The notes below the pieces were generated by a model. It was given only the letters and a program-made list of their open reading frames with translations, did not search any database and was not told where the DNA came from. Shown piece by piece: positions 4,139 to 14,808 of a DNA stretch of 23,226 nt. Positions within the stretch are counted from its first letter, which is position 1. Each line of letters starts with the position of its first letter. The translations under genes were made by a program, and so were the position numbers. The stretch spans positions 1 through 23,226 of the forward strand of contig JBHLPL010000019.1 of NCBI GenBank assembly GCA_048939465.1, in the 5' to 3' direction. The stretch is from Promethearchaeota archaeon (lineage in GTDB: Archaea; Asgardarchaeota; Odinarchaeia; Odinarchaeales; JBHLKK01).

Positions 4139-4177
4139 CTCCTTTAAAGGGGTTATATCAAGATGTAGGTGGTTACA

Positions 4178-5743
4178 ATGTCAAAAGAAGATAGCAATGG
4201 TGGCAAATCTGCCGACGCAGGATCCATGCTTCAGGTTTTCAAATCAATCACCGACAATCCACTAGTTAGACGGATATTAAGGGGGATATCCAAATACTGT
4301 AAAAAGGACCAAGCGAATAGGTTAGAAATAGCCTTAGAGCTGTATACAGGGGTAAGAGAAAACGCCTGCGCAATTTGTAAGCTTTCTGAAAAAATCCTCT
4401 CACCAATCCTTAAAATATCCAGCAATGCCTTTGGGGTGTCACCAGAGCAACTCAAAGAGAAATTCGCGGATCGATACTGGAGAAGAGGACTTGCCAGCGT
4501 TATTAAGGGAATAGCGTATTTCGGCGTAAGACGGCCGTTTGTTCCTGGAGCACCTTTCCAAGTTGTTTGGAATGTGACTCGTGCTTGCAATCTACGGTGC
4601 AAGCATTGCTATGAGAATGCGGGTCGAGCAGATAAGGACGAGCTAACGACTGAGGAGGCTCTAAGGGTTATTGATGAATTGGCCGCTGCAGGAGTGCTTA
4701 TCTTGGCATTCTCTGGGGGAGAACCAACCATAAGGCCTGACATACTAAAGCTAATGAGACGTGCCCACAAACGTGGTATGTATGTCGCAGTTGCAACGAA
4801 TGCAACAGTATTTGCGAATAGAAAGAAGGTCAAAGAGTTCAAAAGAGCAGGCTTGGAATTCGCTCAGATTAGCCTAGATGGCCTTAATCCTGAAACACAC
4901 GATGAGTTCAGAGGTGTCCCTGGAACCTTTGAAAAAACTGTTCAGGGTATTAAAAACTGCGTAGCTGAAGGACTGTTTGTGGAAATAGCCACAACAGCCA
5001 CACAGTATAACTATGAGGAAATTCCAGATCTTATCAAGTATGCGGATAAGCTAGGAGTGGACTGGTTCATGTTATACAATTTCATTCCTGCTGGAAGAGG
5101 AGCAGAGATCGTTGAACAAGACTTGAGTCCAGAGCAGAGAGAAAAACTGCTCAAGAACCTTTGGAACTACATGAAGGAAGGAAAAGTTAAGATTCAGTGT
5201 CTTTCTACAGCTCCTCAGTTTGCCAGGGTGGTAATGGAAGCGGAACTGGGGAAGGACAAGAAGATTTCAGAAGCTGAAGAGGTAACTGTTCCGACTCACT
5301 TCTACAACCCATCTTTTGGAGGTAAACTGAGAAGTCTTGCGGATTTTATCGGCGGATGTGGGGCTGGACGGTTTTACATGGCTATCGAGCCCAACGGAGA
5401 CCTGTATCCTTGTGTATTCTTCCCACACGAGGAAGAAGTCAAAGTCGGCAATTTGAGAAAAGACAGATTTGAGGATGTCTGGCGGCACAATCAGTTGCTT
5501 CTAGAAGCCAGAAACAAAGATTTGCTTGAACCAAACTGCGGTGAGTGCAAATTCCACTATGTTTGCGGAGGCTGCAGAGCAAGAGCCTATAACTATTACA
5601 AGAATATACTCGCTCCCGATCCAGGATGCATTAGGAATCAGCGCTACTGGCTTGATCTCAAGGAAGATTTGAAGACAGCATTTGAGGCAAAACCGACAAT
5701 AACTGGCGACATAGTCCTCCGAAAAGTAAAACAGGAAGCATGA
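4178..5743 (+). CDS. Radical SAM/SPASM-domain protein with ~120-aa N-terminal extension
   Basis: CNLRCKHC radical SAM motif, FSGGEP, SPASM cysteines GCGAG..YPC..CGECKFHYVCGGCRARA..DPGC, N-terminal CAIC. ATG 4178 follows AGGTGG. Confidence 0.93.
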   Translation: MSKEDSNGGKSADAGSMLQVFKSITDNPLVRRILRGISKYCKKDQANRLEIALELYTGVRENACAICKLSEKILSPILKISSNAFGVSPEQLKEKFADRYWRRGLASVIKGIAYFGVRRPFVPGAPFQVVWNVTRACNLRCKHCYENAGRADKDELTTEEALRVIDELAAAGVLILAFSGGEPTIRPDILKLMRRAHKRGMYVAVATNATVFANRKKVKEFKRAGLEFAQISLDGLNPETHDEFRGVPGTFEKTVQGIKNCVAEGLFVEIATTATQYNYEEIPDLIKYADKLGVDWFMLYNFIPAGRGAEIVEQDLSPEQREKLLKNLWNYMKEGKVKIQCLSTAPQFARVVMEAELGKDKKISEAEEVTVPTHFYNPSFGGKLRSLADFIGGCGAGRFYMAIEPNGDLYPCVFFPHEEEVKVGNLRKDRFEDVWRHNQLLLEARNKDLLEPNCGECKFHYVCGGCRARAYNYYKNILAPDPGCIRNQRYWLDLKEDLKTAFEAKPTITGDIVLRKVKQEA

Positions 5744-5867
5744 AGAAAAGTCAGGCTGTCTTTACCTTCTGCGTAGACTGTCAGACACCGAAGTAGCCAT
5801 TTTGGTTAATTCTCTTACATTTTTCGCAACATAACTTCGCGTTGGCTGTGAGTTTCGCAAAGCAATC

Positions 5868-5882
5868 GAAATATATATATAT
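5868..5882 (+). promoter_or_regulatory. Putative BRE/TATA promoter of the gelsolin gene
   Basis: GAA-ATATATATATAT about 45 nt upstream of ATG 5925. Confidence 0.5.
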
Positions 5883-5924
5883 CAGAAAACCGTCTTATTT
5901 AATTTGAATAGGAGGGTTTTATCG

Positions 5925-6191
5925 ATGACCCTAAGCATGTATTGTGTAAGCAGTGATGGAGAATTAGTGGAAGTTGCCTGCTCACAAGATAATCTAGACA
6001 GCGTGGCAATCATTATAGATGATGACCGTAGAAGGATTTACCTATGGATAGGCGAAACAGCCGATGTTAGAAAGAAGTTCATAGCCGCAAGGAAAGCCAC
6101 TGAGCTTAAGAGAGAGAAAGGTCTCATTTACAGGATTAGAAACATCGATCAGGGCTATGAGTCTGAGGAATTCATGCAACTTTTCATGTGA
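5925..6191 (+). CDS. Single-domain gelsolin-family protein (Asgard 1DGel-like)
   Basis: LDSVAIIIDD..RRIYLWIGETADVRKKFIAARKA..LK....IRNIDQGYESEEFMQLF matches the gelsolin repeat pattern (ILD...IYVWIG..A...EK..A...A......VxEGxExxEF..LF). GGAGG lies 9 nt before ATG 5925. Confidence 0.85.
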   Translation: MTLSMYCVSSDGELVEVACSQDNLDSVAIIIDDDRRRIYLWIGETADVRKKFIAARKATELKREKGLIYRIRNIDQGYESEEFMQLFM

Positions 6192-6217
6192 GAATTCCAG
6201 CAAGCTATAAGCTTTTA

Positions 6218-6225
6218 TTTATATA
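6218..6225 (+). promoter_or_regulatory. Putative TATA box of the PDCD5-like gene
   Basis: TTTATATA about 60 nt upstream of TTG 6286. GAGGGA SD-like sequence near the start. Confidence 0.45.
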
Positions 6226-6285
6226 TGCTCTTTAGGTTTAGTGCATGGCTTATTTTGAGAAGGGCATAACGAGGGAGAACAGTCT

Positions 6286-6654
6286 TTGGACGAGCTGGAA
6301 CGGATAAAGAAAAAGAAACTCATGGAACTCATGAAAGAAGCGAAAGACCGTGAGCGAGAGGAAGAGAAACAGAAAGAAGTTGAAAGCAGCAAGGATCAGA
6401 CACTCAAGGCCGTATGCACGCCAGACGCATACCAATATTTGGAATCACTCCAAAAAGTAAAGCCAAAAACTGCTATTGAGATTGGGAGGATAATAATATT
6501 CCTCACGACTAGAAGGAAGCTTGGCGGCAGGGTTACCAAAACAGGCGTCATGATTCTTGAAAGACGCATTGAAGGGGTCGGGCCAAGGATAAGAATAAAG
6601 CGTAGAGGGGAAGACCTAATGGATATATCTGAGAAGCTAAGAAAGAAGGGGTAG
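6286..6654 (+). CDS. PDCD5/TFAR19-like dsDNA-binding protein (divergent)
   Basis: DELERIKKKKLMEL...LKAVCTPDAYQYLESLQKVKPKTA parallels the family pattern dELexIRxxRlxEL...lrqiLTPEAreRLxxixlVKPexA. Confidence 0.75.
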   Translation: MDELERIKKKKLMELMKEAKDREREEEKQKEVESSKDQTLKAVCTPDAYQYLESLQKVKPKTAIEIGRIIIFLTTRRKLGGRVTKTGVMILERRIEGVGPRIRIKRRGEDLMDISEKLRKKG

Positions 6655-6659
6655 AACTA

Positions 6660-6666
6660 TTTTTTT
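6660..6666 (+). terminator. Oligo-T terminator candidate
   Basis: T7 run 5 nt after the PDCD5-like stop codon. Confidence 0.45.
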
Positions 6667-6753
6667 GCCAAAAAGCTTCTAATCACAAGATATTTCTATC
6701 AAAACGACCAATTATATCCTGATCGATTGTTTAATTTTCAGATTACTGGGACG

Positions 6754-7518
6754 ATGGAAAGAATGAGTTTAGAACGGGACGAAACTGAGATCTTGAAGGA
6801 TCAACTCAAGGAAAAGGAATCAGCAATATGGAATTTGCAGGCAAGGATTGGAGAAATCGAGACTGCGCTGAGAACACTAAATGCTGAAGTTAAGATGAAA
6901 GATGAGCAAATAGGGAAACTTAATGATAAAAACGCAGAATTTCAGAAGCAACTGACAAGGATGGAGGTATTCTGCGACAATCTGCAGGCCTACGCTATAA
7001 GAGCTGTCGCCGGATTGGCTGAGGGGAAGAGGGACCTAAAAGAATTGATTAGAGAAAAGGGGAACCTGAAACACAGGATTCTCTTGGTTGTAAATGATTC
7101 GAAGCAAGTAACAAAGGAAGAGCTTGTGACAGAGCTAGGTATTGAAGAGACCACCCTAGATCGTACTCTTCAGGTTCTAAAAGGAGAAGGGCTGATAAAG
7201 GTAGGAACAGATAAGATCATGAGTTCAGCCGCAAGCACTCTTAAAGGACCACCAGTTGAGAAGTGGGGAAGTTTGGCAACAGAAATGCTCTTTGACAGAT
7301 TTGCGGAGTTCTGCAGAGAGAATGAGGAATCCGAACTGGTAGCGAGCGCTATAGAGCGAGTAGCAGACATAGTCGAAGAACGTCTGAAGAGCTATTCACC
7401 ACTTATCTATCAGATGCGAAAAGAGGTAGAGAAGTGGAAAAACAAAACGGGAAGCAAAGAGGATCTGAAAAACTATATCCCCGATTGGAGAAGGAGAACT
7501 CTGAAAGCAGAGATCTAG
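6754..7518 (+). CDS. Coiled-coil + winged-helix + C-terminal helical domain protein, function unknown
   Basis: Heptad-rich N-terminal ~80 aa, then HRILLVV..KQVTKEELVTELGIEETTLDRTLQVLKGEGLIKV (wHTH pattern). Start is ATG 6754 or 6763. Confidence 0.8.
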   Translation: MERMSLERDETEILKDQLKEKESAIWNLQARIGEIETALRTLNAEVKMKDEQIGKLNDKNAEFQKQLTRMEVFCDNLQAYAIRAVAGLAEGKRDLKELIREKGNLKHRILLVVNDSKQVTKEELVTELGIEETTLDRTLQVLKGEGLIKVGTDKIMSSAASTLKGPPVEKWGSLATEMLFDRFAEFCRENEESELVASAIERVADIVEERLKSYSPLIYQMRKEVEKWKNKTGSKEDLKNYIPDWRRRTLKAEI

Positions 7519-7523
7519 GTTTC

Positions 7524-7982
7524 TTAAACAACAGCCGGGAGAGAGGCCTGGGCAATTTCTTTCTTCTTGCCTGCTTCCAGTCTTACTTCATTTACTGCTA
7601 TATCAACTATAGCGGGTATATTTCTTTTGAGGTCTCGACACATCATACTCTGCCATGTTTCATTCTTCAGCGTTTTGAAGTCGCTGGACGGAAAGACAAC
7701 ATCAACATTTACGATACACATCTCCCTTTCTTTCCCTTGGGGTTCAGTATCTTGATTCACGCCCAGAGAAGCAGGGATACCTGTCCAGAGTATCTTGGCT
7801 TCATTCCCCAACCTTCTTACTCTGACTACGTCGACTGCCTTTAGCACATCAAGTACATCATATATCCGTCTTTTCTTAGTCAAAGGAATACCAATGCTTT
7901 TGGCAATTTCCAGCGGCGATCTGGCTATATCCTGTGATTTCAAGTAAGATACCACTTTCCTCGACAGTTCAGAGAGTTTCAT
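7524..7982 (-). CDS. E2F/DP-family winged-helix DNA-binding domain protein
   Basis: KLSELSRKVVSYLK...EIAKSIG..KKRRIYDVLDVLKAVDVV...KILWTG carries the RRxYD motif and terminal W-x-G of the E2F_TDP domain. GGAGGGAG SD before ATG. Confidence 0.85.
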   Translation of the reverse strand: MKLSELSRKVVSYLKSQDIARSPLEIAKSIGIPLTKKRRIYDVLDVLKAVDVVRVRRLGNEAKILWTGIPASLGVNQDTEPQGKEREMCIVNVDVVFPSSDFKTLKNETWQSMMCRDLKRNIPAIVDIAVNEVRLEAGKKKEIAQASLPAVV

Positions 7983-8057
7983 GTTGCTCCCTCCTGAGAT
8001 GAAAAAACCTAGTAGGCTAAAACCACAATAGAGGTATAATTAAAAGGTGGTAAACCG

Positions 8058-8066
8058 ATATAAATA
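8058..8066 (-). promoter_or_regulatory. Putative TATA box of the E2F-like gene
   Basis: TATTTATAT on the minus strand in the 153-bp gap between the Rab-like and E2F-like genes. Confidence 0.4.
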
Positions 8067-8135
8067 CCTTACGAAGCGAATAAAATCCTAAATCAGAACC
8101 GGCATCAAACTTGTCCGTCTTTTGAAGACATAAAA

Positions 8136-8675
8136 TCATCTTTCATTCTTTTTGCTTCGGATTCTATTAATGGTTCCCTTTGTTAAGGCTGTAAAAGCTT
8201 CATCAACTTTTTGACCTGTTTTTGCGCTTGTCTCTAGGTATAGCGAACCCAGGGAGTTGGCTAATTTCTCAGCATCCTCCTTACGAACAGCCCTTAGGTC
8301 TTCGAGATCCACCTTATTGCCAACAATTACGGTTGAGACTGCTTTCCCAAGAAATTGGTTAAGCTCATCAATCCAATTCCTTAGATTCTGGAAAGTTTGA
8401 GCTCTGGTTAAGTCATAAACAATAAATGCTCCGGACGCTCCCCTGTAAAAAACATTTCGAAATGACTTGAATCTTTCCTGACCCGCAATGTCCCAAATGG
8501 ACAGTACAGCTATCTCACCGTTCACCTCAACATCCTTAGATAGAATATCTACGCCGATTGTCATCTTGTAATCACTTCTAAATTTGCCTTTGACGAAGCG
8601 TGTCACCAGAGTCGTTTTCCCCACTGCAGCATCTCCCAAGAGCAGTATTTTGAAGTTATAGGTTGGACCGGTCAA
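8136..8675 (-). CDS. Rab-like small GTPase (Ras superfamily)
   Basis: G1 GDAAVGKT, switch I TIGVD, G3 WDIAGQERF, FYRGA, G4 GNKVD, G5 ETSAK. TTG start. No C-terminal cysteine. Confidence 0.96.
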   Translation of the reverse strand: MTGPTYNFKILLLGDAAVGKTTLVTRFVKGKFRSDYKMTIGVDILSKDVEVNGEIAVLSIWDIAGQERFKSFRNVFYRGASGAFIVYDLTRAQTFQNLRNWIDELNQFLGKAVSTVIVGNKVDLEDLRAVRKEDAEKLANSLGSLYLETSAKTGQKVDEAFTALTKGTINRIRSKKNER

Positions 8676-8784
8676 GTTAGAGCCACCAGGAATTTAGAGT
8701 TTTCAATATATCTTCATAGGACAATCATTATATTTTTATCTTTCTCAAACATAATTATAGTCATCAGATACGTGGTGTTCGTAG

Positions 8785-9660
8785 ATGGGAAGTTATACGG
8801 TATCAGAAGATGCTCTTTTGAACCTAGTGGAGGGAATTAATTCCAAACAGGTCGTCAGACTGCTAAGAAGATGGGGTCACAAGATTAAACCAGGGAATCC
8901 GAAAGAGAACAATGCTAAGTTGATTCATAAATACGTTGGCAACTCCATTTCAAATGAACAACTCGAAGATCTATGGCTTTTAAGAGAGCAGCATGTAATC
9001 TTTAAGAAGCTGGGATGGAGGCTATTTGAGCTTGATATGAGAATGAAGAAGATGTCTCCCGAAGCTCTAGAAGAAAGGCTGAATGCGATTCTCAAGGAGG
9101 AAAGACTTACCAAAACCACACGATGCAGAGTATATGATCTTGGCAGGAGGAGTCTCCAGTATGTTAGCTTCATTTTTAAGGAAAGAGACAACATCTTCGA
9201 ATCATGGAAAAGTAAATTCAAAATATTCAAGCCTGTTTGGAAAGCTAGATGCATATTAGATTATGATCATAGTGTTATTAGAGTCAATGCAGAGAATGAT
9301 AACCTCGAAGTGGTTTTGAATATTCTTGGCACGGTCATGGGAGGCAGTCTTAAGAGCATCAGACTCCCTCCGTATATCTTGAAAGAATTAGCGGAAGAAG
9401 ATCTTGTGACAAGAATTGTCCTGCTTTCCTCAACTGAGGTGACCGGTGCAAAAGGCGTGGGCAGAATAGTGTTGGAAGGTAAGGATGTCATGAGGGGAGT
9501 AGAGGAGCTTCGTACAAGACAAGAGATAGATCTCAACAAACTAGGAGTGTTGCTCGAAGTGGGCACAAAATCACTAAAAGCAAATGTTGAAGGGATCGTT
9601 TGGACAGAAGACGAAAACAAAATGAATCGTTTTTTGGAGAAATTCATTAAATCAGACTAA
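8785..9660 (+). CDS. Hypothetical protein; candidate CENP-N/Chl4-like protein
   Basis: The ORF is clearly coding (291 aa, ATG after a GGTG SD). The family call rests only on by-eye alignment to recalled CENP-N/Chl4 sequences (see findings). The confidence value is for the family call. Confidence 0.55.
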   Translation: MGSYTVSEDALLNLVEGINSKQVVRLLRRWGHKIKPGNPKENNAKLIHKYVGNSISNEQLEDLWLLREQHVIFKKLGWRLFELDMRMKKMSPEALEERLNAILKEERLTKTTRCRVYDLGRRSLQYVSFIFKERDNIFESWKSKFKIFKPVWKARCILDYDHSVIRVNAENDNLEVVLNILGTVMGGSLKSIRLPPYILKELAEEDLVTRIVLLSSTEVTGAKGVGRIVLEGKDVMRGVEELRTRQEIDLNKLGVLLEVGTKSLKANVEGIVWTEDENKMNRFLEKFIKSD

Positions 9661-9695
9661 TCAGGATCGAAGTTCAAGAAAATCTTGCGAATATC

Positions 9696-9702
9696 TTTTT
9701 TT
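9696..9702 (+). terminator. Oligo-T terminator candidate
   Basis: T7 run about 35 nt after the stop at 9660. Confidence 0.35.
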
Positions 9703-9858
9703 CAATATTTCAAACCTGCGAAATTCTATTGAAATTATCAGATTTTTTAGATATAAAATATAGAAAATTTTATTAATTAGAACGGTGCATATAGACCAAA
9801 GAAGTTGTTACTGTCAGCGGAAAAAACTCCTTCACACAAAAAAGGTAGGCGGGTTAAT

Positions 9859-10386
9859 TTGGAGTGGAGAGCTTTCTGGAGAAGATTTTGGAGCAATTGG
9901 TATAAGAGTAAAGTGAGGAGCTGGGGTGGTAGCAAGGGATTAATCATCCCATCAGCTATGAGAATTCCAAGAGGACCAGTGCTAATTCAGGAAGAAGGGC
10001 ACGTAATAAAAGTCATTCACTTGGCCATTCCCCTTACTGAATTCGTCGGGTTTGTAAAAGCAAGACTTGAGAACAGCTTGGATCATGACAACGGCCTAGA
10101 CTGGTCAGATGAAGAGATGGAAAATCGACTGACGGAAGTGTTGCTGGCGGTTCGGGCTTTGCAGCAACGATCCTCAAAGGAGTCTTCTGAATTCATTAAG
10201 GACACAGAAGATGTCCGCAGTCTCTTCTCAAGCATGGCCGGATCTATTGAGGCCCATCTGAAACTGTTCAGCAAAACGGATTCAGTATTTGGTAAGACAT
10301 TCCACTGGCAAAGACTTATGGACGAGGTGCAGAACGCCCTAAGTGTTCTCAACGGTCTGTTTGGAAAGATCCAGTACGCACAGTAA
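9859..10386 (+). CDS. AbrB/MazE/SpoVT-like DNA-binding domain protein with helical C-terminal domain
   Basis: SKVRSWGGSKGLIIPSAMRI..GPVLIQEEGHVIKVI matches the AbrB swapped-hairpin pattern KVxxWGNSxGIxIP. Start uncertain (TTG 9805 or TTG 9859). Confidence 0.65.
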   Translation: MEWRAFWRRFWSNWYKSKVRSWGGSKGLIIPSAMRIPRGPVLIQEEGHVIKVIHLAIPLTEFVGFVKARLENSLDHDNGLDWSDEEMENRLTEVLLAVRALQQRSSKESSEFIKDTEDVRSLFSSMAGSIEAHLKLFSKTDSVFGKTFHWQRLMDEVQNALSVLNGLFGKIQYAQ

Positions 10387-10582
10387 GCCCTGAGAGAAAT
10401 TAACTCCTCATCGAGAAATTAACGTAGCTACAGTACATTAATTCTTCGTCGATTATTATATGCAAACACTAAATATTTAAGAGGAGCTGCTATTCTTTTT
10501 TATCAACATAAGAGCATAGGAGGGCGGGGAAGTGTTCCCACGCACCGGACATCCTTGGTAAATCAACAAAAGAGGCAACCTG

Positions 10583-10816
10583 GTGGAAGGCATGTTGTCG
10601 ATAATCAGTAGTATCAACGAAATAGTCCAAGAATATGACGGATTAGTGCAAATCACAAAATCCGGGACGGACTGGTTAGAGACAAGGATACGAACAGAGG
10701 ACCCTGAGAAGAGGATACATGTATTAGTAGCAATGGCGAAGGAACTTGAAAAACAGTACTATAGACCGGTACATGTCTATAGTAATCACGATCGTCACAT
10801 GATTATTATGAAATAA
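10583..10816 (+). CDS. Small hypothetical protein (77 aa)
   Basis: Protein-like composition, GAGG SD-like sequence upstream, followed by a T-rich terminator. Start is GTG 10583 or ATG 10592. Confidence 0.65.
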   Translation: MEGMLSIISSINEIVQEYDGLVQITKSGTDWLETRIRTEDPEKRIHVLVAMAKELEKQYYRPVHVYSNHDRHMIIMK

Positions 10817-10835
10817 ATCAATCTTACCGCCTACC

Positions 10836-10864
10836 TTTTTTTTGCTTTTCTTTTTTTTATTTTC
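10836..10864 (+). terminator. Long T-rich tract between convergent genes
   Basis: TTTTTTTTGCTTTTCTTTTTTTTATTTTC between the stop at 10816 and the opposite-strand stop at 10865. Confidence 0.6.
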
Positions 10865-12457
10865 TTAGGCCTCGTCCTCAAAGGAATCAAATGCATCCTT
10901 AAACATCTTGACAGACCAGACCCAGTCTTTACTACGTCCGCTGTATAGTTGTTTTCCCTGGGGATCCTTCAGAGGAATTGCGCTGTGGACGAAATTCTGC
11001 CGAGTTCTGTAGCAGAGCCGCAGATCAGTGACTTCCTTCAGATTCTCTATGTATTCTCTTAAAATGTAATCTAGATTGGTTAGACTTCCCTTTGGAAGGC
11101 TGCAGAAAGCAGCTAGACTGTTATTTCCTCTCAGATCTCTTAGATGATAAACGTAAACCCTCGGTAGCTCAAGAACACAGGATTCGATCGTTTTGAGGAA
11201 ATGCATATCACCTGTACATTGGAGAAACACAGTCTCATCCAGGCCAACATTAACGAGATGTATATATGGAGAGAAGACGGCTTCTCGTTTGAGTCGCTCG
11301 CGACGCTCATATGTCTGAGATATACTGAGACCAAGCTCATTTGATAGCTGCCTTATAGGATTACTCGCATTAAGTGTGAGTAGGTTCAGTAGCTTCAGAT
11401 CTGTTAAATCGAAATCGATCAAACTTGCTTTTTCAGAGTGTTCATCTGTAGACCCCATATCCCCGGTTACATAAACAGAATAAAGACCTTCTCTAAGCAC
11501 TCTTCTAACCCATAATGCCCAGTTTTCCCAGCCGATATTCCACTCCTTTCTCTCGAAATCATAATTGGACTTGATTGCAAATGATTCTCTTTGGTTTGCT
11601 ACCTCCCAAAGCTCGCCTTCTATTCCATACTTCCTCAGGAGCGAAGACAGTGAATCTACAGCGCCTCCCGGTAGCGAGAAGGAGTAGGTGTTTAGAATTG
11701 TTCCAGCTCTCAGTTCTTGGATGATTTTCATATACGGGAGAAGAGGGAGTTTCTGACGTGTAATCAATATGAGGTTGACAAGCCCGAGCTTTCCGTAGTT
11801 TATTCGAGCGTTGACAGTCAGATAACATCTTCGATGAAGACGTCTTAAGTGGGCTGCAACAGTGTTCCTTGACAGTTTCAACTGCTTTGCAAGTTTCTTT
11901 ATCGAAATCAGGGGGTTTTGATCCATTGCGGAAAGCAAATCCACATCGGTTCTGTCGAGAAACATCCTTTGAGTCGATAGAGCAAGTAAATCCATATACT
12001 GAACTGTTTCCTGAACACTAAGCGGATATTTGTACATATCAAATTTGGCGACTCGCTCTACCATATTAGGCAAAAAAGATCCATCTGTAATATTGTCATA
12101 CCATAGCAAATCAAAAACAGAGCAATAAGTCGTTCCATCTTCGAATTGGATTGTGATTTTCGATTGGTCTGTAGGAGAAGAGTTCGTTTTCCTACACCAT
12201 TCGTTGAGTATTTCGGTCTTTTCTTTTCCACTGAGGATTTTGTACAGAAAGAGGTACGTAAGATCCTGACAGATCTGAGAAGGTAGCATCTCGGGCAGGA
12301 AGTGCTGGAAGATGCTACTCAGTCTTGCCTCCTTATCCAGATCGGCAAAGTCGGCAGGATCTATAGTGATAGCTAGCTCCTTTGTCCCAAGTAGGGACTT
12401 AATCTCTTCTATCTCTGCCGCAATTTCTTCTGCAGTGGGAACTAATGCTAACGTCAT
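10865..12457 (-). CDS. Tandem Lrp/AsnC-type transcription regulator with N-terminal extension
   Basis: Two AsnC-type HTH modules: LDRTDVDLLSAM..NPLISIKKLAKQLKLSRNTVAAHLRRL..NYGKLGL and DLTDLKLLNLLTLNASNPIRQLSNELGLSISQTYERRERLK..VNVGL. Confidence 0.82.
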   Translation of the reverse strand: MTLALVPTAEEIAAEIEEIKSLLGTKELAITIDPADFADLDKEARLSSIFQHFLPEMLPSQICQDLTYLFLYKILSGKEKTEILNEWCRKTNSSPTDQSKITIQFEDGTTYCSVFDLLWYDNITDGSFLPNMVERVAKFDMYKYPLSVQETVQYMDLLALSTQRMFLDRTDVDLLSAMDQNPLISIKKLAKQLKLSRNTVAAHLRRLHRRCYLTVNARINYGKLGLVNLILITRQKLPLLPYMKIIQELRAGTILNTYSFSLPGGAVDSLSSLLRKYGIEGELWEVANQRESFAIKSNYDFERKEWNIGWENWALWVRRVLREGLYSVYVTGDMGSTDEHSEKASLIDFDLTDLKLLNLLTLNASNPIRQLSNELGLSISQTYERRERLKREAVFSPYIHLVNVGLDETVFLQCTGDMHFLKTIESCVLELPRVYVYHLRDLRGNNSLAAFCSLPKGSLTNLDYILREYIENLKEVTDLRLCYRTRQNFVHSAIPLKDPQGKQLYSGRSKDWVWSVKMFKDAFDSFEDEA

Positions 12458-13382: not shown

Positions 13383-13685
13383 ATGAGTGGGCCTCTTGCT
13401 AAAGTCTTAGAGGATATCGCCTTGATATTGAGCAACGATAACCTCTCAGTAAACAAAACGTCGGATGCGTTGAATAAAGCTTGGACGGTCATAGATCAAG
13501 CAAGAGGTGCTGTCAGTGATCCAATTATTAGCAGAATATGCGAGGCTCTTACTAAACTTGCAGTTGTTCTTGATGCGTATAACGCAAAAATGATTAACCT
13601 TGATGCCTTTGTGGGTTATGTCAAAAGCGAAGAAATCCCAAACAGCTTGAATGAATTGGCGTCCACTGTTCGAAATTCATCTTAG
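13383..13685 (+). CDS. Small helical hypothetical protein; paralog of 12787..13086
   Basis: Paralogy with 12787..13086 supports ATG 13383 over TTG 13335. Its stop overlaps the rps7 stop by 4 nt. Confidence 0.75.
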   Translation: MSGPLAKVLEDIALILSNDNLSVNKTSDALNKAWTVIDQARGAVSDPIISRICEALTKLAVVLDAYNAKMINLDAFVGYVKSEEIPNSLNELASTVRNSS

Positions 13686-14311
13686 CGAGCAGAAAGAGCT
13701 ATTCTTTCCTTCTCTCCCTTTCTCTTTATCGCATAACTCTTTGGACTCCCTGTAGCTGCTGAAATGAGTTCGTCTGCAATGCATTCTTCAATCGATTTAG
13801 TGTTACCGATGCTCGCCTTAAGACTGCCTTGGACCAAGAATCTGAGAGCCAGGTCTAAACGTCTCTGAGGGGCTACATCGACTGCTTGCTGGTATGCAAT
13901 CCCCCCATAGCTAATTCTCGTTGTTTCCTCCTTCGGAGCCGCGTTCTCAATCGCAGAAATCAGTACTTGTATCGGGGAGTTGCGGGTCTTTAAACTGATA
14001 ATCTCGAAAGCCGCTTTAACCATGTTTGTAATCTTCTCCTTCTTCCCACTAGATTCACTTTTCTTTATCCTCTTTCCTCCTCGACCTTTGGCCAAACCGG
14101 GGTTCATGAACTTATTGATGAAGCGCTCGACAATTGGCACTCTAGACTTCCCAAATCGGCTATGCTCGTGTCTACCACCGGTGTGAGGCACATACACCGG
14201 TTTTATGCTAATATAGCGCTTCAATCCGCGATCCCTTACCTCTATTCCTTCGAAATCCCATCTGTTGAACAGTTTCACTTTTGAGGTATCAGATTTTTCT
14301 TCTTTAGACAT
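13682..14311 (-). CDS. rps7: 30S ribosomal protein S7 (uS7), archaeal type
   Basis: KLFNRWDF, RDRGLKRYISIKP, PHTGGRH, PIVERFINK, NPIQ-like SPIQVLISAIENAAPKEETTR, VDVAPQRRLDLALR, ELISAA..SYAIKRK.EKERIA.SAR. Confidence 0.98.
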   Translation of the reverse strand: MSKEEKSDTSKVKLFNRWDFEGIEVRDRGLKRYISIKPVYVPHTGGRHEHSRFGKSRVPIVERFINKFMNPGLAKGRGGKRIKKSESSGKKEKITNMVKAAFEIISLKTRNSPIQVLISAIENAAPKEETTRISYGGIAYQQAVDVAPQRRLDLALRFLVQGSLKASIGNTKSIEECIADELISAATGSPKSYAIKRKGEKERIALSAR

Positions 14312-14457
14312 CGTCTGTTCCCTTGAGTCTCGATTTTTCTTGGCAGCCTAGTAATTTGAGGCCAGATTGGAGTCGTTAAACGAGTTTAAAAAGCTTGTGC
14401 TAGACTCATCTCCAAAGCTTTTAAGAAGAAGCTCAGATGTTTACTGAGGTGATCATT

Positions 14458-14808
14458 ATGTATGTAAGAAGAGTAGCTGAAATCAAGGCTGAGAATGTGA
14501 AGGAAGCCAGAAAGACCAAAATCCAGTGGTTAATCACAAAGAAAAACGCAGGTGCTAGCAATTTTACGATGAGGCGATTCTCTATAGAAAAAGGTGGCGA
14601 GATACCTTCCCACAGTCACAACTGGGAACATGAGATCTATATTCTGAAAGGCAAAGGTATTCTGGGCTGGCCCAGCCAGGAACAAGAAGTCGAGGCAGAT
14701 ATGGTTGTTTATGTTCCACCGAATCTCCCACACTGGTACAAGAATACTGGCGATGAAGAACTGGTCTTTATATGTATAATTCCTTACAAAGGATTGGAAT
14801 CATTTTGA
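14458..14808 (+). CDS. Cupin-domain protein
   Basis: IPSHSHNWEHEIYILKGKG and YVPPNLPHWYKNTG cupin motifs. GAGGTGA SD supports ATG 14458. Confidence 0.93.
   Translation: MYVRRVAEIKAENVKEARKTKIQWLITKKNAGASNFTMRRFSIEKGGEIPSHSHNWEHEIYILKGKGILGWPSQEQEVEADMVVYVPPNLPHWYKNTGDEELVFICIIPYKGLESF

Follow-up and report, generated by a model that had tools for sequence, protein, structure and literature searches.

We studied a run of seven consecutive genes, designated g1 to g7, in the genome of an Asgard archaeon (Promethearchaeota archaeon; Asgardarchaeota, Odinarchaeia, Odinarchaeales, JBHLKK01). The whole stretch of DNA analysed, called the window below, is 23,226 nucleotides long and corresponds to contig JBHLPL010000019.1 (C33) of assembly GCA_048939465.1, read on the forward strand. 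The assembly comprised 1.96 Mb in 152 contigs and was 91% complete; the genomes of order-level relatives measured 1.3-1.4 Mb. The original prediction on this DNA had placed at positions 5925-10386 a cluster of gelsolin, PDCD5-like, coiled-coil/winged helix-turn-helix (wHTH), E2F-like, Rab-like, CENP-N-like and AbrB-like genes, and had proposed that they might form one cell-cycle and segregation module. Our reading of the open reading frames (ORFs) of the window found seven consecutive ORFs at exactly these coordinates, and the gelsolin, PDCD5-like, E2F-like and Rab-like names were all upheld by matches over the curated Pfam cut-offs; the remaining names and the module itself fared differently (see below).

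Gene content of the locus

The first gene, g1 (5925..6191, plus strand), encodes a single-domain gelsolin of the ProGel type with 88 amino acids (aa), which matched Pfam Gelsolin (PF00626) with 25.8 bits against a gathering cut-off of 21; its best solved relatives in a PDB sequence search were the Asgard gelsolins 7WHG, 7C2G and 7C2F. Next to it, g2 (6286..6654, plus strand; 122 aa) is a second, divergent paralog of the PDCD5/TFAR19-type double-stranded DNA-binding proteins, with 39 bits for Pfam dsDNA_bind (PF01984) against a cut-off of 26. The canonical PDCD5-type gene, scoring 91 bits, lies on contig C106 (G000:C106:12078-12398, minus strand), with no other gene of the cluster within the stretch examined. 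The third gene, g3 (6727..7518, plus strand; 263 aa), encodes a coiled-coil plus winged-helix protein whose wHTH matches behind the coiled coil were all sub-threshold (MarR_2, 20.3 versus 27; TFIIE_alpha), and coiled-coil-type matches were obtained as well.

On the minus strand, g4 (7524..7982; 152 aa) encodes an E2F/DP-type winged-helix protein with a lineage-specific C-terminal half. It matched Pfam E2F_TDP with 35.2 bits against a cut-off of 25.7, and its sole PDB sequence matches were E2F8, E2F4 and DP2, to which its RRIYD aligned at the DNA-contact motif RRxYD. A coiled-coil/marked-box dimerisation region was not detected in Pfam at E-values up to 1, E2F_TDP alone being matched. The second E2F_TDP gene of the genome (35.3 bits; contig C96, G000:C96:262-420, minus strand) had no other cluster gene within the stretch examined. 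Earlier work had described E2F/DP homologs from across the Asgard groups (Eme et al. 2023, PMC10307638, Supplementary 4.1.5). Also on the minus strand, g5 (8136..8675; 179 aa) encodes a Rab-like small GTPase that matched Pfam Ras with 190 bits against a cut-off of 21.6; in PDB it matched the Thorarchaeota Rab 7EZB best (3.7e-44), with Rab21 and Rab8A next. The G1-G5 motifs of g5 were intact (GDAAVGKT, DIAGQE, NKVD, SAK). Its tail has no C-terminal Cys and thus lacks the prenylation motif of the Rab subfamily.

The plus strand resumes with g6 (8785..9660), which encodes a basic protein of 291 aa, present in a single copy and predicted from its structure model to have the CENP-L/CENP-N/RdgC fold (see below). 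The last gene of the run, g7 (9859..10386, plus strand; 175 aa), probably starts at TTG 9859 rather than at 9805, as indicated by an alignment of its orthologs (A2). A conserved N-terminal motif, WGGSKGL-IP, and a C-terminal four-helix bundle characterize this protein, and none of six orthologs matched a Pfam family. Its predicted AlphaFold2 (AF2) model had a mean predicted local distance difference test score (pLDDT) of 68, residues 15-38 falling below 50 with the N-terminal motif not resolved, and a fold search with it returned generic four-helix bundles only. The sole basis that we found for the AbrB-like label was a weak MazE/AbrB shape match in the Atlas, with template modelling (TM) scores of 0.34/0.54. 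A conserved ORF of 77 aa, g8 (10583..10816, plus strand), was located after g7 throughout the genomes of the order (28-81% identity by tblastn in loci L024-L028) and matched no Pfam family; g6, g7 and g8 may form a lineage-specific trio.

The cluster is flanked on the left by LarA and a radical-SAM/SPASM gene (4169-5743, plus strand; Pfam) and on the right by a tandem Lrp/AsnC regulator (10865-12457, minus strand; Pfam). Across the genome we counted about 10 Ras-like GTPases, two E2F_TDP genes, two PDCD5-type genes, one or two gelsolins and one g6.

Transcriptional organization

Among the seven genes there were three strand switches, and same-strand neighbours were separated by 72-198 bp. Putative TATA-like boxes were read in the sequence 50-110 nt upstream of g1, g2, g6 and g7, and g4 and g5 were preceded by A/T-rich stretches. 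The original prediction had described the Rab and E2F genes as divergent from the CENP-N-like gene across a gap of 109 bp, which proved correct: this g5/g6 intergenic region (8676..8784) had a guanine-plus-cytosine (GC) content of 0.31 and, upstream of the two genes, a TATA-like box about 58 nt from g6 and an A/T-rich stretch about 60 nt from g5. Runs of oligo-T were present after g2, g6 and g8. From these signals, the locus appears to consist of five or more transcription units, most of the genes having a promoter-like box to themselves.

The sequence therefore does not show the anatomy of an operon, i.e., co-directional and closely spaced genes under one promoter, and this lack counts against the proposal that the seven genes are one functional module, in which an E2F-type cell-cycle regulator would be coupled to chromosome segregation, with a CENP-N-like protein reading the centromere, and through gelsolin and Rab to cytoskeleton and trafficking. 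That proposal draws its appeal from four proteins of eukaryote-signature types and from a g6 with the CENP-L/N fold. Note that, in all, four to five eukaryote-type genes occur among the seven, a number whose excess over chance cannot be judged post hoc. A second point against the module comes from the eukaryote-type E2F site TTTSSCGC, which occurred 0 times in the window versus 1.9 expected; the archaeal specificity may differ from this consensus.

Conservation within the order

All seven genes were collinear in two genomes of the same genus, and six of the seven in four genomes of the sister family. With the latter, the collinear block measured 13 kb and ran from LarA (2733) to a tetratricopeptide repeat (TPR) gene (16014), including the radical-SAM gene, Lrp, the gene of ribosomal protein S7 (13682-14311, minus strand) and a cupin gene (14437-14808, plus strand); collinearity ended left of LarA and after 16014. 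Since the metabolic and ribosomal flanks are collinear too, conservation inside the order carries no information particular to the seven genes. This synteny of unrelated genes is in keeping with an explanation by coincidence, according to which slow rearrangement in a small streamlined genome has kept the genes together and their recurrences elsewhere (see below) arose by chance, aided by the many GTPase paralogs. It is unfavorable to the module, in that gelsolin, g7 and g8 are linked to the rest in the order only, and there the metabolic flanks share this linkage.

The content of the cluster varied in the sister family. Gene g3 was found in none of the four genomes. In the closed genome G003, the GTPase was split by a frameshift into two ORFs of 83 and 94 aa (L025:10334-10872), and in G005 its place was taken by an ORF-free stretch of about 500 bp (L027:9315-9812). 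The GTPase was thus broken or lost in two of the four sister genomes, with g4 and g6 intact on either side of it. The missing g3 and the damaged GTPase both argue against a seven-gene machine. In addition, gelsolin and the radical-SAM gene were separated in the sister genus by an extra gene that was absent from the window; it encodes a 198-aa P-loop kinase-like protein (AAA_17, 104 bits; L025:8237-8833, minus strand) and occupied the same place in L026-L028.

The same comparisons bear on the idea that the locus is a horizontally acquired island or a mobile element carrying eukaryote-like genes, which we rejected as extremely improbable. Nothing was found in its favor; it was considered since clusters of unusual genes often prove to be islands. 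Against it, the GC content was even across the window (0.39-0.46), no tRNA or known RNA gene was found in the window, no integrase or transposase family was found among the window proteins scanned, and the same order and context were present in six related genomes.

DNA nearly identical to positions 5800-10900 (0.94-0.98 of sampled words) was present in mangrove and sediment metagenome runs of three studies, and the assembly may derive from some of these runs. This setting contrasts with that of Odinarchaeum, which is of hot-spring origin.

Fold and family of g6

The protein of g6 matched no Pfam family at E-values up to 1, including CENP-N/Chl4 (PF05238), CENP-L (PF13092) and RdgC (PF04381), and neither phmmer nor a profile search against PDB gave a sequence link to CENP-L/N or RdgC. 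The predicted structure was more informative. An AF2 model built on an alignment of nine orthologs had a pLDDT of 77 and a predicted TM-score (pTM) of 0.74, and in a Foldseek search of PDB its top 26 matches were all CENP-L, CENP-N, Iml3, Chl4 or Escherichia coli RdgC, with E-values of 5e-7 to 1e-3. VIA-align, a structure aligner independent of Foldseek, placed CENP-L (7PKN_L) first with a Z-score of 13.1 over 209 residues at 3.7 Å, followed by Chl4 (6QLF_N; Z 12.3), the N-terminal part of CENP-N (6EQT; Z 10.9), Iml3 (Z 9.7) and E. coli RdgC (Z 9.3), all ahead of the first unrelated row (Z 7.6). In the ESM Atlas, g6 matched CENP-L with TM-scores of 0.60/0.60, a phage hypothetical protein with 0.69/0.60 and an RdgC-like cluster with 0.53/0.43. 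The safe statement is that g6 is a member of the RdgC/CENP-L/N fold superfamily, as judged from the predicted model. The CENP-N/Chl4-like designation of the original prediction was thus borne out for the fold and found no match in sequence. Note that CENP-L and the RdgC-like proteins of bacteria and phages were about equally close to g6, which weakens the use of g6 as an argument for a segregation module.

A profile search of 1.84 billion protein representatives recovered only 83 cluster representatives related to g6, of the same size; 10 of these 83, the weakest included, were scanned against Pfam and showed no CENP or RdgC family. A word-index homolog search gave genus-level relatives only. 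Members of the family are basic, mostly with a pI of 9-10, and share a conserved C-terminal motif, G..G...G.DV..G...L..R.EI, specific to the family. One member of 377 aa (P0024) had a PCI-like wHTH domain fused at its C-terminus (Pfam PCI, 22.4 bits), and in the taxonomic families f4, f14, f24 and f25 (numbering of the phylum survey described below) a separate gene of 130-160 aa, encoding a Zn-ribbon plus a PCI-like wHTH, lay directly upstream of g6. Together, the fusion and the upstream gene suggest a fusion-type link of g6 with a wHTH partner. No homolog of this Zn-ribbon/wHTH neighbour was found in the present genome. The neighbour was also considered as a relative of ribosomal protein S25e, to which it showed no similarity.

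For CENP-L/N themselves, no sequence relatives had been found in earlier work (Tromer et al. 2019, PMC6601020). In the searchable literature, which leaves most supplements outside, we found no relevant report that joins Asgard archaea with CENP-N, CENP-L or RdgC, and structure-based Asgard surveys did not mention CENP-L/N or RdgC-like proteins in their main text.

Distribution in the phylum

We surveyed 201 Asgard genomes belonging to 27 taxonomic families. The g6 family was present in 68 of the 201 genomes and in 13 families, always as one copy. E2F_TDP also occurred in 13 families, seven of them common to both, and the two profiles disagreed: among the 43 genomes of f6, the largest family with E2F, 38 had E2F and none had g6, and among the 10 genomes of f21, all had g6 and none had E2F. 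This discordance speaks against a module that joins the E2F-type regulator to g6. Full-length orthologs of g4, with its conserved C-terminal half, were restricted to f1, f2 and f12, those of g7 to f1 and f2, and gelsolin was tied to the rest of the cluster in f1 and f2 only, i.e., within the order. Homologs of g3 were found in f13, f6, f4 and f18, the one in f6 having the same coiled-coil plus wHTH make-up. The PDCD5-type family was nearly universal in the phylum (195/201 genomes).

The neighbours of g6 varied across 11 other families. They included UPF0047 in f7, flanking glycosyltransferase and subtilase genes in f21, a ribosomal S25e gene directly upstream in f16 (L066/L067/L099), and a proteasome alpha-subunit gene one or two genes upstream in f16 and f18 (L076). 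Distant E2F-type genes had none of the other six cluster genes within 10 kb, except in f12, where the PDCD5 paralog alone was adjacent. The flank genes LarA, radical-SAM, Lrp and ThyX, which served as controls, were never near distant g6 or E2F loci. The full set of seven genes was therefore confined to the order, and co-location across distant lineages was limited to pairs.

Recurrent gene pairs

Three pairs recurred outside the order. First, g6 was immediately preceded by a co-directional GTPase gene in f18, where the two overlapped by 8 bp, and in each of the nine f21 loci examined, with gaps of -20 to 45 bp. These g6-linked GTPases of f18 and f21 formed one clade (support 91/82), and their best match in the present genome was g5. 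Second, g2 and g4 were convergent and adjacent in f1, f2 and two genera of f12, that is, in all three families with a full-length g4; in f6, the g2 and g4 families were about 10 kb apart. Third, homologs of g2 and g3 were adjacent in two genera of f6. In f16, furthermore, an E2F-type gene was 4-6 kb from g6.

The recurrence of g3-g2, g2-g4 and g5-g6, each in another class, together with the E2F-type gene near g6 in f16, is the best that can be said for the module at the level of the phylum. The original prediction had stated that scattered orthologs with discordant distributions would speak against it, and across Asgard genomes that is mostly what synteny and phyletic profiles gave; what survives of the claim are these three pairs. 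Considering also that the seven genes lack operon structure, that conservation extends to the flanks and that the genes disperse outside the order, the seven-gene cell-cycle and segregation module did not hold, and we regard it as improbable.

Whether the pairs could be accidental depends on the frequency of their parts. The genomes G028 and G138 each have 21-34 or more Ras-like GTPases, so that a GTPase neighbour there is not very rare, and the recurring pairs are mostly convergent or divergent, not co-transcribed; both points favor coincidence. On the other hand, about 30 GTPases in about 4,200 genes give an estimated chance of about 1.4% for an immediate GTPase neighbour, and f18 and nine of nine f21 loci still show a tight same-strand pair with GTPases of one clade. 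Genes g2 and g4 are of single-copy type, and their adjacency in another class (f12, two genera) would be expected in an estimated 0.1% or so of genomes. The control flank genes, moreover, never recur. We consequently judge coincidence to be unlikely, though it retains a greater claim to attention than any other alternative treated here.

A complex of g6 and g5 with GTP and Mg was also predicted; its score was 0.00, which counts neither for nor against binding.

Interpretation

The explanation that we favor, and hold to be probably correct with considerable room for doubt, is that the locus is an eroding ancestral neighbourhood of separately transcribed chromatin- or DNA-related regulators, not an operon or a seven-gene machine. 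That the run is intact here would be due solely to the collinearity that close relatives retain over the wider 13-kb stretch. The chain g3-g2-g4-g5-g6 would represent an old neighbourhood worn down differently in each lineage, and gelsolin, g7 and g8 would stand outside that chain. Most of the proteins (g2, g3, g4 and g6) are predicted nucleic-acid binders or regulators, with g5 and g1 alongside. By analogy with RdgC, the basic protein g6 may be a DNA-binding clamp or scaffold, probably homo-oligomeric. The adjacent small GTPase could be a dispensable accessory or regulator of g6, possibly in physical contact with it, and g2, g3 and g4 could act as independent DNA-binding factors.

Several points weigh against this reading. 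The f18 and f21 GTPases may not be orthologous to the GTPase of the Odin order: all of them fall in one 17-row group that the tree does not split further, and the reciprocal best match fails, as the best matches of g5 in G028 and G138 were other paralogs. Separate transcription relies on promoter and terminator calls that come from sequence reading. As few as one independent retention may underlie each pair. Conversely, pairs kept over class-level divergence usually denote a functional link, so the term eroding may understate the cooperation among g2 to g6.

Gelsolin, Rab-like GTPases and E2F/DP proteins are already known in Asgard archaea. What seems worth following is the g6 family with its CENP-L/N-RdgC fold, its repeated pairing with a small GTPase, and the association of the E2F-like gene with the second PDCD5 paralog. 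Should the similarity in fold be due to descent, it would be relevant to how the kinetochore originated; should it be that of a general RdgC-like DNA clamp, shared with bacteria and phages, there would be nothing unusual about the locus. The most far-reaching version of the former would make the g6 family an archaeal relative of CENP-L/CENP-N from before their duplication, acting as a single-copy DNA or chromatin clamp; together with its GTPase partner and the old E2F/PDCD5/wHTH neighbourhood, it would mark an Asgard chromosome-handling or cell-cycle system that was the source of part of the inner kinetochore. We offer this as a speculation with a slim chance of being right. The gene pairs provide concrete and cheap hypotheses for the small number of cultivated Asgard archaea or for heterologous expression.

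Comparison with known systems

From its sequence, g1 appears to resemble the Asgard gelsolins (ProGel and 2DGel; 7C2F, 7C2G, 7WHG) in having one gelsolin domain of about 88 aa, and it differs from them in its linkage to other cluster genes, found within the order only. The protein of g2 belongs with the PDCD5/TFAR19 family by its score over the curated cut-off, but it is a divergent second paralog, and it is this copy, not the canonical one, that adjoins the E2F-like and g3 genes. Like the Asgard E2F/DP homologs described before (PMC10307638), g4 carries the E2F_TDP winged helix, including the recognition motif RRxYD, at its N-terminus; it departs from eukaryotic E2F/DP proteins in that no dimerisation region was detected in it by Pfam, its C-terminal half is lineage-specific and TTTSSCGC sites are absent from the window. 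The GTPase g5 shares the Ras-family G domain with the Asgard Rab-like GTPases (7EZB) and with eukaryotic Rab8, Rab21 and Rab1, Rabs being its closest relatives. It differs from Rabs by the absence of the C-terminal Cys prenylation motif, and it is one of about 10 paralogs in the genome and dispensable in the sister genus.

For g6, the differences from CENP-L/N are the lack of sequence similarity and a single copy in 68 of 68 genomes, in contrast to the paralogous L and N that pair as a heterodimer; we know of no CENP-A-type partner of g6. From RdgC, g6 differs in having no RdgC Pfam match; the fold of its predicted model (Z 9.3) and its single copy would fit an RdgC-like protein. With CENP-L/N, the predicted model of g6 would share a CENP-L/N homology domain plus a C-terminal sheet domain, and g6 resembles CENP-L/Iml3, CENP-N/Chl4 and RdgC in being a basic protein of about 290 aa.

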